64,000 bases of DNA from Octopus vulgaris (Eukaryota): the NCBI GenBank assembly GCA_951406725.2, contig OX597823.1:31558001-31622000 (forward strand), read 5' to 3'. The first letter of the stretch is position 1; every line of letters begins with the position of its first letter. The notes beneath the pieces are model-generated. The model had not been told where the DNA came from. It saw only the letters and a list, made by a program, of their open reading frames with translations, and did no database searches. Both the position numbers and the translations under genes were made by a program. Shown piece after piece: positions 401 to 63,990 of this stretch.

Positions 401-493
401 AATCGAACTGATGAAAGAATCTAAAAATGACCCTTTGGTCATTAGTTATGACTCACTCCTTAGGTTGCAAAAGCGACTCCAGATCTGCTTTCA

Positions 494-611
494 AGAAGAA
501 GAAGAAGAAGAAGAAGAAGAAGAAGAAGAAGAAGAAGAAGAAGAAGAAGAAGAAGAAGAAGAAGAAGAAGAAGAAGAAGAAGAAGAAGAAGAAGAAGAAG
601 AAGAAGAAGAA
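494..611 (+). repeat. (GAA)n microsatellite
   Basis: Perfect AAG run directly after the LINE 3' end. Confidence 0.98.
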
Positions 612-8979: not shown

Positions 8980-9445
8980 CAGCTGGAGGCAACTGCAAGA
9001 GTTACAGGGAATATGAGACCGAGAATAGACAAACGATACAGAAGTGGACATACGAAAGAGGAGAATGAATGTAATTCAAGACGAGGTCGCTAGTGGACGG
9101 ATGGGGTACTAAAACAGAATGAATAAAAAAAAACAGAATGCAGCCTTAAGGCCAGATGCAAAGGAAGCATGGGTAACGCTTAGAGGGAAATCCTAAAGAA
9201 TTTGGAACATAAGGGCAACAGATATCGTAACAGGCTGAAATGGAGACTAGAGTTGCAGGGACTCGCAGGCGCCTCCAGCTGGAAAGTAATTTTATCGTTA
9301 AAGGCATGAAATTGCGTCAAACCCTCTGATCGATAACTGATGAGAAATTGGGGACCTTCTGTATCTGTTTTCCGTTCGTCTGTGCATTTGATATATGTTT
9401 ATACCTTACGATTCTGTGTCTGTTTTTCGTTTGTGCATTTACTAT
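8980..9445 (+). mobile_element. Penelope-pLTR-like repeat carrying a permuted HHR; 5' part inverted; same family as 58765-59650
   Basis: Shared motifs attcaagacgag, tagtggacgga, gtggacatacga, gggtaacgc, atcctaaag and ttatcgttaaaggc...aactgatga. Confidence 0.6.
9286..9344 (+). ncRNA. Non-circularly permuted hammerhead-like ribozyme (family X1)
   Basis: GTAAT-T-TTATCG ... T-GAA-ATTGC ... CGATAA-CTGATGA-G; stem III GTAAT/ATTGC, stem I TTATCG/CGATAA. Confidence 0.7.
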
Positions 9446-9505
9446 ACATTTTTTTCACTTATTAAACAACAGAAAGCAACACCCTTTAGTTTCATTCACA
9501 GTAAG

Positions 9506-9543
<38 letters not shown>

Positions 9544-22859: not shown

Positions 22860-23370
22860 CTCTGCCTCTCTCTCATCTCTTCCCAAGTGGCCGACGTTCA
22901 GGCAAGCCTGATCTTTCTTTCTTGGTCTGGCCGTTGTCGGTGCAAAATCGATATTCCTCCCTGTGACTGTGAAATATTGTATCCCTGCCGTAAGGCTTCA
23001 TTTCCACACACGACAGCTTAATCTAATTCGTCCTTAGTCGAAAGACACCTGTTGTTATGTCCTGTTATTGTTTTTATTGTATTTGTGTAACATTGTCCGT
23101 TTCTTTCCGTCCTTGTTTTTTATACATTCGCTGCTTTCTTCCAAGGAATCTAATGCTCTTAGCTTAGTTTTTCCTTGGGACTGGCCAGATTGGTTCAATA
23201 TCGAGTATAACCAACCGAAACTGCAAAGATAACCTGGAACTCGACTGAGGAAAGAAAACACCGAATGACCCGTCCTTGTTTTCGTTGTATCGTCTATCTG
23301 GATGTTTTGTTGTCCCTTTTTTGTATCACCTAACTGTCTGGATGTTTTGCGTTCTTGTCCCATTTTGTAT
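22860..23370 (+). mobile_element. pLTR-like repeat carrying permuted HHR family X2, ending in (TA)n
   Basis: T-rich tail ending tgtcccattttgta (also at 22505-22518). Confidence 0.5.
23196..23254 (+). ncRNA. Non-circularly permuted hammerhead-like ribozyme (family X2)
   Basis: CAAT-A-TCGAGT ... CC-GAA-ACTG ... ACTCGA-CTGAGGA-AAG. Confidence 0.7.
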
Positions 23371-26070: not shown

Positions 26071-26080
26071 AAAAAAACCA

Positions 26081-26472
26081 TCTTTATATAAGAGTGAAGT
26101 TGTGTGTCTGTCTCCTACGATTTAGATTCCTAACTACTCCCACATTTTGCGGTGCAGTTTAACCAAAAGCGGGTATCTTATAGTCGTGATTCATATCGAG
26201 CCCTTCTGGGTATTAGCGTGCGTCTACGATGAGTCTACGATTTTAAAAAATTTACCATCATATTTTTCCATTTTAATGCATTTTTTTCGCTTTTATATAA
26301 GGGAAGTAACTCTCTAAAAATATCTACGATGTGTCAACGATTTTAAAAAAATTTACCTTAATTTTTTTTCAATTTTTAATGCATTTTTTCCTATTTTTTG
26401 GCTATAACTCTCTAAAAATGCTTATATAGTTATTTCCCTTACAACCCGAGCAACGCCGGGCGATATTGCTAG
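26081..26472 (+). mobile_element. Non-autonomous Helitron family A
   Basis: A|TCTTTATATA start; CCCGAGCAACGCCGGG hairpin; CTAG|T end. Confidence 0.88.
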
Positions 26473-27838: not shown

Positions 27839-28001
27839 CTGTTTTCGTTCCAGCACACGATCTCAGATCAAGTCACTTGCTATGCAAGTACATCTCTGTA
27901 ACTATATATATATATTATATATATATATATATGTATATTGGTAAAAACAGTAAGATAACAAAAGAAAGAAAGAGAGCTCAATATTATGTAAATAGAGGAA
28001 A

Positions 28002-28393
28002 TCTTTATATATAAAAGTGAGGTTGTGTGTCTGTCTCCTACGATTTAGATTCCTAACTACTCCCACATTTTGCGGTGCAGTTTAACCAAAACCGGGTATC
28101 TTATAGTCGTGATTCATATCGAGACCGTCTGGGTATTAGCGCGCGTCTACGATGAGTCTACGATTTAAAAAAATTTACCATCAATTTTTCCCATTGTTAA
28201 TCCATTTTTGACATATATAAGGGAAGTAACTCTCTAAAATTTATTATTAAATCTCAGAACGTAAAAAGCTACAGTAACACCCCTCCCCTTTGTGGTTAGC
28301 CATATTGAGATGGCTATTATACTTTACATCTCTAAAAATGCTTATATAATTATTTCCCTTACAAACTTGAGCAACGCCGGGCGATACTGCTAG
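28002..28393 (+). mobile_element. Non-autonomous Helitron family A (variant)
   Basis: A|TC ... hairpin ... CTAG|T. Confidence 0.88.
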
Positions 28394-36164: not shown

Positions 36165-36333
36165 TTAAAAATACCTTGGGAATGAAAACCCAGGTTCGAA
36201 ATTTCTCCAAGACACCTGATGAAGGCTGGAGGGTACAACAGTCGAAACGTTGTGTTAACAAACAAGATAAGGACAAATATCCGTCAATTGTAAATAATGT
36301 ACATAATTCCTCATCTCTTAAATATAGAACTGT
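35951..36333 (+). mobile_element. tRNA-Ile-like head + (TAA)(GAA)(CAA) + HHR composite element (family H1)
   Basis: GGTTAAGAGCGCCGGCTACTAACCCCAAGATTCC..TTCGATTCC head; HHR tail ending aaatatagaactgta. Confidence 0.85.
36211..36256 (+). ncRNA. Minimal type I hammerhead (Penelope-type)
   Basis: GACAC-CTGATGA-A-GGCTG-loop-CAGTC-GAA-ACGT-T-GTGTT. Confidence 0.85.
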
Positions 36334-54799: not shown

Positions 54800-55225
54800 C
54801 GTTTGCCTGTCTTTTCTCGAAGCTTGCTTTTTCAGCGTTCATCACTTCACATCATCTGGGCGTAACAACCCTCACCGTTTGTTTTTATAGTTTTGTTCTT
54901 ACTGTCCTGTTTTTGTTACCACTTTAACCCTCGGCAAAAAATCCCAAATTTTATTTAATTGGCTTTGCGGGAAGGATTGCCTTAATGAAGTCGCATCTTG
55001 TCCCTACCTTCGAAACGCAAAGTAGATAAAACAGGGGACAACTGATGAAGGGAATGTTCTTTATGTTGCCTGTCTCATTTCTCTATTTGTTTCTTTCGTT
55101 GTTTGGAAAAAAAGTTCGTTTTCTATGTTTTCGTTTTTTTTATTCTCGTTTCTCATTTTCACGCTTTTTTTTTGACGTCCTGTACCCATATATGCATGTA
55201 TATATATATAGATATGTATGTATAT
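54800..55225 (+). mobile_element. pLTR-like repeat carrying permuted HHR family X3
   Basis: T-rich flanks; terminal gacgtcctgtacccatatatgcatg also found inverted at 34.0 kb. Confidence 0.5.
54993..55052 (+). ncRNA. Non-circularly permuted hammerhead-like ribozyme (family X3)
   Basis: GCAT-C-TTGTCCC ... TTC-GAA-ACGC ... GGGACAA-CTGATGA-AGGG. Confidence 0.75.
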
Positions 55226-58764: not shown

Positions 58765-59650
58765 CGTATGCACAAACAAACGGAAAACATATACACAAAA
58801 GGTCGCCAAATAGTCATCAGTTATTGTCCAAAGGATTCCCACAATTTAGCGCCTTTAACGATAACATTAGTCCCCTTTGGTAGCGCCAGCGACGACAAGC
58901 CGCCGGGAAATAACGAGCCAATGAACAAAGGACCAAACACGAAAGAAAGTGTACATACAAATATGAAATAAATATATCTTTATATATAAAAGTAAGGTTG
59001 TGTGTCTGTCTCCTACGATTTAGATTCCTAACTACTCCCACATTTTGCGGTGCAGTTTAACCAACACCGGGTATCTTATAGTCGTGATTTATATCGAGCC
59101 CTTCTGGGTATTAGCGCGCGTCTACGATGAGTCTACGATTTTAAAAAAAATTTACCATCATTTTTTTCATTTTAATGCATTTTTTCGCTATTATATAAGA
59201 GAAGTAACTCTCTAAAAATGTCTACGATGAGTCAACAATTTAAAAAAAAATTTACCATCATTTTCTTTCCATTTTTAATGCATTTTTTTGCTATTTTTTG
59301 GCTATAACTCTCTAAAAAATGCTTATATAGTTATTTCCCTTACAAACCCGAGCAACGCCGGGCGATACTGCTAGTAGTATATTACATACAAACGAAATAA
59401 TATTCAAGACGAGACGAATAGTGGACGGACATGGCACAAACACATAAACAAACTGGACGGAATGTGGACATACGAACGGAATGAAATGAATAAACGGAAA
59501 TACCGCCTTACGACTCAGACATTAGACGAAAATAAGGGTAACGCCAAGACGAGTATCCTAAAGGATAAAATAGAAACGAGAGGAATAGAATATAGGGAAA
59601 TATTGATATTTCCATATCTCTCTAAAGGAGACTACGGCAGCGGTACTGGA
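58765..59650 (-). mobile_element. pLTR-like repeat family X1 (interrupted by Helitron A), with degenerate permuted HHR at 58813-58870
   Basis: rc CTAAT-G-TTATCGT...C-TAA-ATTGT...ACAATAA-CTGATGA; homologous to 8980-9445. Confidence 0.6.
58977..59374 (+). mobile_element. Non-autonomous Helitron family A
   Basis: A|TC ... CCCGAGCAACGCCGGG ... CTAG|T. Confidence 0.9.
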
Positions 59651-62479: not shown

Positions 62480-63990
62480 AAGAGAACAGCTAGCACGCGC
62501 TTTTTGTGTTATTATTTATTGATATTTCCTTCAGAATGAGTACGTATATATCCCAGTTGTTAGTCCAGGATGAACGACTCTGGTTATTAATGTTGTTATT
62601 ATTTTGATACTTTCTGACAATGTTATCATACAGAGAATTTTTGTTCCTCTTCTGGTGACCTGTTTCAGTGGAACTGTGCAACATTTCTGGGTGTATATTC
62701 TTGGCCATCAATCGAGGAATGCATTCTGAGAAGCTCCTTTCCAACTTTTGATGTATGCAGATTTGATCCGTGGTTGGATTTCGACATTTGATGGTCTGTA
62801 GATCTTGTCAAGGGGATACAATGTGCCATTCAAAGGTTACTGGGTAGATGTTAAGCCTCAATCGTTTTGTTTTCGTTTTAATTAGGAGTAGTCTACACCA
62901 TTGCTGATGTTGAAATTCGTGATATGTGTTAACAATTTTGGGGTTGTAACGTCAATATTGAAGATCCCTTCTAGAATCCAAATGTTGAAGAACCCAAACG
63001 ATGGTATGAACATGGTACAGTAAAATAATTGTGGACTTTTGATTTATTGAATGTGAACAATTCCGAGGTCCATCTTTTCTTTATCCTGGTTTTATATTCT
63101 CTGGTTAAACGTTCCTTGATACAGATTCCATCAACATTATTTACATTGTTTACAATTGACGGATATTTGTCCTCATCTTGTTTGTTGTTAACACAACGTT
63201 TCGGTTGATATACCCTCCAGCCTTCATCAGGTGTCTTGGGGAAATTTCGAACCTAATTTCCCCAAGACACCTGATGAAGGCTGGAGGGTATATCAGCCGA
63301 AATGTGTTGACAATAAACAAGATGAGGACAAATATCTGCAAATGTAAATAATGTAAATAATGTAAATAATTCCTTATCTCTTAAATATAGAACTGTAGAT
63401 TCCATCAAAGTAAATATTTTCATCCATCATTAAGAACCTGTAGAAGTCCTCATCCAACATCATAGAAAAGCACAGACCATTCTTAGCTGTAGGGAAGCTA
63501 ATTGTTCTACAATCATTTAAGAACATCTATCCTGGCCAAATTCCATCTCCGTATCTTTTGGAATGTTATAACTAGATTAAAGCTTTTCTTTATACTGTTC
63601 ATACTCTTAGCAAATCACTCACAAACAAGCAATGCGTTAAATTAGTGCTCTTGTCTATTTGTGAAACAATTGCCCATAACATTTCCTTAATAAAAAAGAA
63701 AGACGGTTCAAAAAAAATACAAATAACGTTTTCTATACATCGTTGACGACAAATTTTGCCTGAGCATGTTGTTGGCTGTGTGTATTCCCTATTGACTACG
63801 CACAACGAGGCAGAAATGCATTTGGTATTCTCACTAGCAAATGCTTAGAAGATTTTCGTCTCTCCTGGTTTATATATGGTGTTTTTAAACACAGCACGTT
63901 CATAAAAGATATTGTCTCCGAAGGAACACCGCGGTAAATTTACCTTGCGTGGTGTTGTGGCTGTTTTAATCTAAAACTGCTAATGCTGCA
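62480..63990 (-). mobile_element. Decayed R4/Dong-like LINE (RT to C-terminus), interrupted at 63135-63396
   Basis: THCLFVSDL, EMEFGQDRC, DENIYFDGI|CIKERLTREYKTRIKKRWTSELFTFNK. Confidence 0.7.
63135..63396. mobile_element. Inverted dimer of the family H1 HHR tail with 12-bp TSD
   Basis: TSD agattccatcaa at 63123-63134 and 63397-63408; HHRs at 63190-63235 (-) and 63266-63308 (+, stem III deleted). Confidence 0.9.

Follow-up and report, generated by a model that had tools for sequence, protein, structure and literature searches.

The nearest described counterparts of the fold considered here are the type-SGC hammerheads, HRIMA-1 and its variants (Eckert et al., 2023, PMC10085705). In the portion of that paper available to us, these ribozymes carry the cut site, GAAA and CUGAnGA in that 5'-3' order (blocks S, G and C), keep all core bases, have a short linker between stems I and II and a pseudoknotted core, and are shown to cleave. 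In HRIMA-1, stem II follows CUGAUGA after at most one U, and block C is assumed there not to be interruptible by more than 1-2 nt. Among retroelements, the minimal type I hammerheads of canonical Penelope-like elements (PLEs) lie in the terminal repeats, have the order C-G-S, a G10.1-C11.1 pair, variation between positions 9 and 10.1 and a short palindromic stem III, and work as dimers; a role proposed for them is to free the RNA of the element from read-through transcripts (Cervera and de la Pena, 2014, PMC4209133). Naiad elements have partial tandems, 5' inversions, (TA)n targets, a 30-40 bp tail and a donor-like GT at the boundary of pLTR and body. The available part of the source reports them as having no canonical hammerheads, with some keeping the core and 18 flagged HHR_core or half_core (Craig et al., 2021, PMC8557442). 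Animal non-LTR retrozymes are non-coding hammerhead repeats proposed, in the text at hand, to be non-autonomous PLE derivatives (Li, Clavereau and Pollet, 2026, bioRxiv 10.64898/2026.07.22.740005).

In the 64,000-nucleotide stretch of Octopus vulgaris DNA analysed here (the window), an S-G-C descriptor run over both strands has one match, at positions 9286-9344. Looser descriptor settings give 0.017 matches per window in 60 block-wise dinucleotide shuffles, and none of the 60 matches once the observed stem lengths are required. Rereading the sequence reproduces the strand layout that an earlier note had described at this site: stem III pairs GTAAT (9286-90) with ATTGC (9311-15) in 5 bp, one of them G-U, and stem I pairs TTATCG (9292-97) with CGATAA (9331-36) in 6 bp. 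On the + strand, block S (9286..9297) holds a stem III strand, U16.1, H17 at 9291, after which the cut is predicted, and a stem I strand. Block G (9303..9315) holds the stem II 3' strand GGCAT, in which C11.1 has decayed to T, then GAA (9308-10) and the second stem III strand, and 9331..9348 holds the second stem I strand, CTGATGA (9337-43) and a strand of helix IIa. We take this site, 9286-9344, as the likely core of a decayed member of a repeat family, X1, whose RNA is predicted to form a hammerhead with an opened core, and X1 as a likely non-autonomous Penelope-like element.

The note had also assigned this site a stem II of one base pair. The nucleotides that follow CUGAUGA can indeed form just one pair with those preceding GAAA, but the description is incomplete, as the partner strand of stem II sits upstream, outside the flagged interval. 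The interval is thus too narrow for the motif: the stem II partner (9269-73), the 5' strand of a further helix, IIIb (9275-78 with 9326-29), and an inversion break at about 9262 had all been missed. In X1, the partner of the five bases that precede GAAA is a strand immediately 5' of IIIb (GTGCC/GGCAC or GCGCC/GGCGC; three subfamilies have bulged forms). The bases that follow CUGAUGA find their partner in a distant upstream strand, forming helix IIa, and the stretch from IIa' to the stem II strand contains a hairpin, P0. The predicted 5'-3' order is therefore IIa', P0, the 5' strand of stem II, IIIb, the cut site with stems III and I, the 3' strand of stem II with GAAA, IIIb', stem I, CUGAUGA and IIa. 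A9 would be separate from G10.1 and run into IIa, so that IIa, P0 and stem II would meet the A9/G12 end of the core in a predicted four-way junction. This junction has no unpaired linker in seven of eight family majorities and one linker base in the eighth (X1b).

All six helices are parsed in the majorities of six X1 subfamilies (built from 67 of 80 distinct copies) and in those of X2 (20 copies) and X3 (18 copies). X2 and X3 are families unrelated to X1 with the same six-helix layout, and each has a copy on the + strand of the window, at 23135..23257 (C3 at 23245) and 54928..55052 (C3 at 55042), respectively. Every helix differs in sequence between the X1 subfamilies, X2 and X3: stem II is GGCTGG/CCAGCC and P0 CCAAGGAA/TTCCTTGG in X2, whereas they are GAAGG/CCTTC and CCGCAAA/TTTGCGG in X3. 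The pair at 10.1-11.1 is G-C in all of them, and the catalytic core (CUGAnGA, GAAA, UH) with a non-G H17 is kept in every family majority. Stem I complementarity is kept throughout as well. In the X1 majorities, stems I, II and III have 6, 4-6 and 4-6 bp, with stem II formed from the upstream strand, so the 5 bp of stem III at the flagged site is not a family-wide trait. Among 32 X1 rows, each invariant core base is kept in 28-32.

When the upstream 60 nt were shuffled, the fold score was reached in 0/150 cases for X1a, X1d, X2 and X3 and in 3-11/150 for the remaining four X1 groups. The octopus Naiad majority gave 7/150, with P0 misread by the parser, which picked a poor hairpin with an A-C mismatch where 9 bp can be seen by eye. 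Under the open-core structure, 85.3% of cells pair in 21 X1 copies, against 23-45% in slid controls, and 1/500 shuffles reaches its covariation; stem II pair 2, for example, is U-A in six of these copies and C-G in seven. An important caveat is that the 21 rows were hand-picked from 40 intact copies to span the subfamilies, that such counts favour a structure derived from the same sequences, and that CpG decay can mimic double changes. Recurrence across families is stronger evidence than the pairing counts.

Energy-based folding gives a mixed picture. RNAfold, unprompted, gives IIa, P0 and stem II in the intact X1 copy L182. Folding z-scores of three intact X1 copies are modest (-1.7 to -1.9), and the MFEs of the family majorities often favour pairings other than the open-core fold. 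Among X1 copies the core bases are no better kept than their neighbours, and there is thus no sign of selection on inserted copies. Two other pairings seen by eye were dropped: AAGG/CCTT as stem II and a pairing of the strand after A9 with the 5' strand of stem II, which is poor in subfamily a.

With respect to known hammerheads, X1 has the order S-G-C of type-SGC rather than the circularly permuted nested order of types I-III in Rfam. Its block C lacks a stem II strand directly after CUGAnGA, so the X1 fold is not a strict type-SGC member; its stem II uses a strand from 5' of the cut, it adds helices IIa, P0 and IIIb to the type-SGC plan (available text of PMC10085705), and its cleavage is predicted. 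X1 has the terminal-repeat setting, G10.1-C11.1 pair and 9/10.1 variation of PLE type I hammerheads, and differs from them (PMC4209133) in a full stem III and a predicted monomer fold. An Rfam search of 9150-9480 gave no hammerhead match at E<=10 and one chance snoRNA match, and among the 150 of 476 whole-window matches listed, Rfam returned microsatellite miRNA noise. A metagenome pattern scan for the layout gave 0 matches. Natural hammerheads accept a single additional base at the step from A9 to G10.1 (PMC3705267, PMC4209133). In the open-access papers and bioRxiv main texts covered, we found no description of the X1 layout, no tested hammerhead opened at A9/G10.1 and no report of two helices there. 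On this basis we classify the predicted X1 fold as a new hammerhead variant. As a separate observation, the locus L049 has an S-G-C descriptor match at about 480-540 (+), with a stem I of 5 bp and a stem III of 4 bp, that is unrelated to X1-X3 and may be a further family or chance.

A classical type-SGC stem II, built from the strand after CUGAUGA, was considered for X1 and rejected: 51.5% of cells pair, 88/500 shuffles reach the whole structure, and the stem has only 1 bp in most X1 groups and 0 bp in X2, X3 and the octopus Naiad when no base is skipped. A subtler isomer would close the core by pairing the G after A9 with C11.1; stem II would then be 1 bp long, with the IIa/P0/II junction as its cap, and the core would be covalently canonical. 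All six X1 majorities have this G in a pair with C11.1, as do 20 of 21 cells, and the isomer could be reached by one-step branch migration with no pair lost. In addition, a U must bulge out behind the first pair of stem II in the open forms of X1b, X1e and X1f. However, the corresponding stem has 0 pairs in the X2, X3 and octopus Naiad majorities without an inserted base and 0, 3 and 2 weak pairs with one, and IIa begins with C or A in the available Naiad_Plae and Acropora tails. The closed core can therefore hold for X1 only, and we think it improbable even there; energies of the two isomers are uninformative because stems I and III were omitted from the comparison.

The open-core layout can also be read by eye in at least nine of the 54 Naiad consensus tails in the available supplement of Craig et al. 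(2021, PMC8557442): three are Acropora elements, two come from Octopus, and the others are Naiad_Plae, the record preceding it and one record each in parts 9 and 19. Nine is a lower bound, because line breaks hide matches and CTGACGA matches were covered up to part 19; CTGAAGA matches in the supplement yielded no further clear case. In Naiad_Plae and the preceding record, the layout is in sense orientation and lies 3' of the RT frame. The Naiads that carry it come from cnidarians, an acanthocephalan and cephalopods, and in these available tails they have the order, the 0-1 nt linkers and the core in common. The octopus Naiad tail motif has 779 matches in the genome at <=1 mismatch. Other arrangements occur in the same supplement. 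Six tails in parts 13-16 (nematode by file order) show the simple hammerhead order C-S-G plus one additional helix; Eckert et al. (2023, PMC10085705) had reported this permutation from no more than two metagenome sequences. A part 17 tail (spider by file order) has CUGACGA and GAAACGCGT in an arrangement that fits neither fold.

The X1 unit is about 770 bp long and has no long ORF. A search of 2.8 Gb of genome gave 492 candidates, 40 of which were scored. An 18-base core motif had 96 exact occurrences, against 0 for the control, while an X1 profile had 0 matches across 260 loci picked without regard to X1 (578,905 bases); we infer a copy number of roughly a thousand. X1 shows the 5' truncation, partial tandems (pLTR) and inverted 5' arms of Penelope-like elements. 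A 5'-truncated copy lies directly before a full unit in L005, L006, L021 and L081, and inverted arms are found in many loci, the window insertion being one example (9262-9505 plus 8980-9252). The 3' ends cluster about 50-77 nt past C3 in many copies and lie further on in others, and (TA)4 follows the 3' end in 45/96 copies, compared with 19/96 in a control further away. A donor-like GTRWGT occurs at the junction of tandem and body in five of eight boundaries examined, suggesting from sequence a pLTR-spanning intron, and a donor-like junction has been described for a Chlamys intron in the available text of Craig et al. (2021, PMC8557442). GTAAGT, GTGAGT or GTATGT, which resemble splice donors, are seen at the partial-tandem/body junctions of L005, L006, L012, L021 and L081 and near position 9500 of the window.

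These features make X1 probably a non-autonomous Penelope-like element. X1 resembles Naiads in partial tandems, 5' inversions, (TA)n targets, tail, donor-like GT and predicted fold, but, in comparison with the available Naiad descriptions (PMC8557442), it has no ORF, hence no N-terminal GIY-YIG with RT as in an autonomous Naiad, and its sequence has no detected similarity to that of the octopus Naiad. We found no RT upstream of X1 in sense; RT-like tblastn matches in L078 and L012 sit either downstream of X1 or in the opposite orientation, and we regard them as neighbours. A GIY-YIG search returned mainly a 781-aa frame family, with no X1 link in the 20 loci inspected. Since a comparison of three Naiad tail regions with 392 loci detected no shared sequence, we infer mobilization by Naiads, which is probable, from the fold and the insertion pattern. 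Like the non-LTR retrozymes, X1 is a non-coding hammerhead repeat, but it has dispersed partial tandems and a 3' end fixed away from the cut; the available part of that preprint (10.64898/2026.07.22.740005) yielded no Naiad-linked ribozyme or permutation.

If the predicted RNA cleaves, the 5' ends of inserted copies might record the cut. Copies were chosen by a motif downstream of the cut (X1, 96/96; X2, the first 70 of 643 listed; X3, the first 90 of 394 listed). Among the 256 copies, 40 5' ends fall at -3..+10 of the cut and 12 at -17..-4 (p=5e-4), with the caveats that some counted ends are internal deletions and that the end window was picked after the ends were seen. X2 and X3 without X1 give 21 and 7 (p=0.016). 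Per 1000 base-exposures, the rates at -3..+10 are 19.5, 13.5 and 13.3 for X1, X2 and X3, compared with 6.1, 5.6 and 4.5 at -17..-4. Sliding the step test over 72 offsets places the strongest signal at +2, 0 and +1, and four X3 copies start precisely at the first base 3' of the cut. The sequence around the X1 cut is AT-rich, and microhomology with (TA)n targets can blur the ends there. The X3 end rate stays as high at +11..+34 (15.0) as at the cut, and the X3 pattern is thus a step rather than a peak.

The same data bear on the idea that the fold is real but serves as a structural signal, such as an RT or endonuclease binding site or a roadblock, with cleavage absent or negligible and truncations due to RT stalling. 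Consistent with this idea, 44 of 96 X1 copies extend 71 nt or more beyond the cut, X3 ends are dense over the whole structured region, and metazoan PLE hammerheads cleave poorly in vitro (available text of PMC4209133). Yet no family majority has lost a catalytic position or carries G at H17, although their helices have nothing in common in sequence, and the end step falls at the cut, where, we reason, no helix 3' strand would remain to stall RT. A purely structural role is improbable. A chance arrangement multiplied by copying, for which speak the non-independence of copies within a family and the missing Rfam hammerhead match, is very improbable, because the order, 0-1 nt linkers and core recur in three sequence-unrelated window families and in Naiads of several phyla.

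The part of our reading that the earlier note shares, a permuted hammerhead family (non-circularly permuted in our analysis) with a predicted cut after 9291, is backed by the family majorities, the recurrence in unrelated families and the end clustering. The flagged copy itself has fared less well. It is a forward, 5'-truncated segment of subfamily a (9262..9505, +; model about -75 to +200 from C3), followed on its 3' side by a (TA)n tract at 9509-9539. The inverted 5' arm of the same insertion occupies 8980..9252 (-; model -344 to -56), and its end near 8980-9015 holds IIa', P0 and the 5' strands of stem II and IIIb, all on the opposite strand. The sense strand consequently lacks IIa' and the 5' arm of P0, lost at the inversion at about 9262. 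It keeps the P0 3' arm (9264..9268, +), the stem II 5' strand GCGCC (9269..9273, +; its first G is the predicted G10.1 and its partner 9303-9307) and the IIIb 5' strand CCAG (9275..9278, +; partner 9326-9329, CTGA here and CTGG in the family).

Relative to subfamily a, this copy has 11 mismatches over about 111 bases. Stem II has a G-U at its start plus a C-A, and IIIb and IIa have one change each, IIa reading GAAAT here versus GGAAT in the subfamily, with its partner missing. Its RNAfold z-score is +0.3, and a strict parser finds the full fold in 0/4 window copies (this one and three others). Because the inversion removes two helices and stem II has decayed, the copy is probably impaired, slow or inactive, and efficient cleavage by it seems unlikely. 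The note had implied a contrast between a living copy at 9286 and a dead one at 58813 on the minus strand. The latter does carry G12>T and H17>G, but the contrast is not supported, since the 9286 copy is itself without helix IIa and the 5' arm of P0. The minus-strand copy (58768..58920, C3 at 58820) belongs to a different subfamily, c; it keeps the upstream strands and has two IIa changes.

At 59402-59577 (-) and about 58940-59200, the upstream part of X1 occurs on the strand that carries the 58820 copy, and between it and that copy lies another repeat, which recurs near 26080-26301 and 27964-28209. The window also holds canonical Penelope-type type I hammerheads (CCTGATGAAGGC...GCCGAAACGTT) at 36216(+), 43345(+), 63271(+), 63230(-) and 35542(-), with the pair at 63200-63301 forming an inverted duplication.

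Hammerhead cleavage leaves a 2',3'-cyclic phosphate and a 5'-OH. In the model we propose for intact X1, stem II would stack under G12-A9 as in ordinary hammerheads and IIa would stack on P0, the two clamping the opening, so the usual chemistry would yield these same ends. Intact versions would probably cleave. A cut in the upstream partial-tandem copy would free the element RNA from read-through transcripts, and a reverse transcriptase running off the cut ends would give copies that begin at the cut. Cutting must be partial, because many copies run through it. Folding of the junction or branch migration may switch cutting, sparing the 3' copy.

The flagged copy is a fossil, and its value lies in the family. 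If the X1 fold cleaves, the hammerhead core can open covalently at A9/G10.1 with a four-way junction holding it, the block rule used to count hammerhead permutations would be broken, and non-circular hammerheads, so far mostly environmental RNA, would also be found in animal genomes. Cleavage would in addition offer a direct way to ask what PLE hammerheads do, with the cut recorded in the insertion ends, and would account for Naiads having seemed ribozyme-free. Overall, the evidence leans toward Naiads and their non-coding parasites carrying an active hammerhead topology that none of the six block permutations covers, A9 and G10.1 being separated by a four-way junction. Such ribozymes would be abundant in animal genomes and missed by all descriptors, and their cut would set the 5' end of the retrotransposing RNA.
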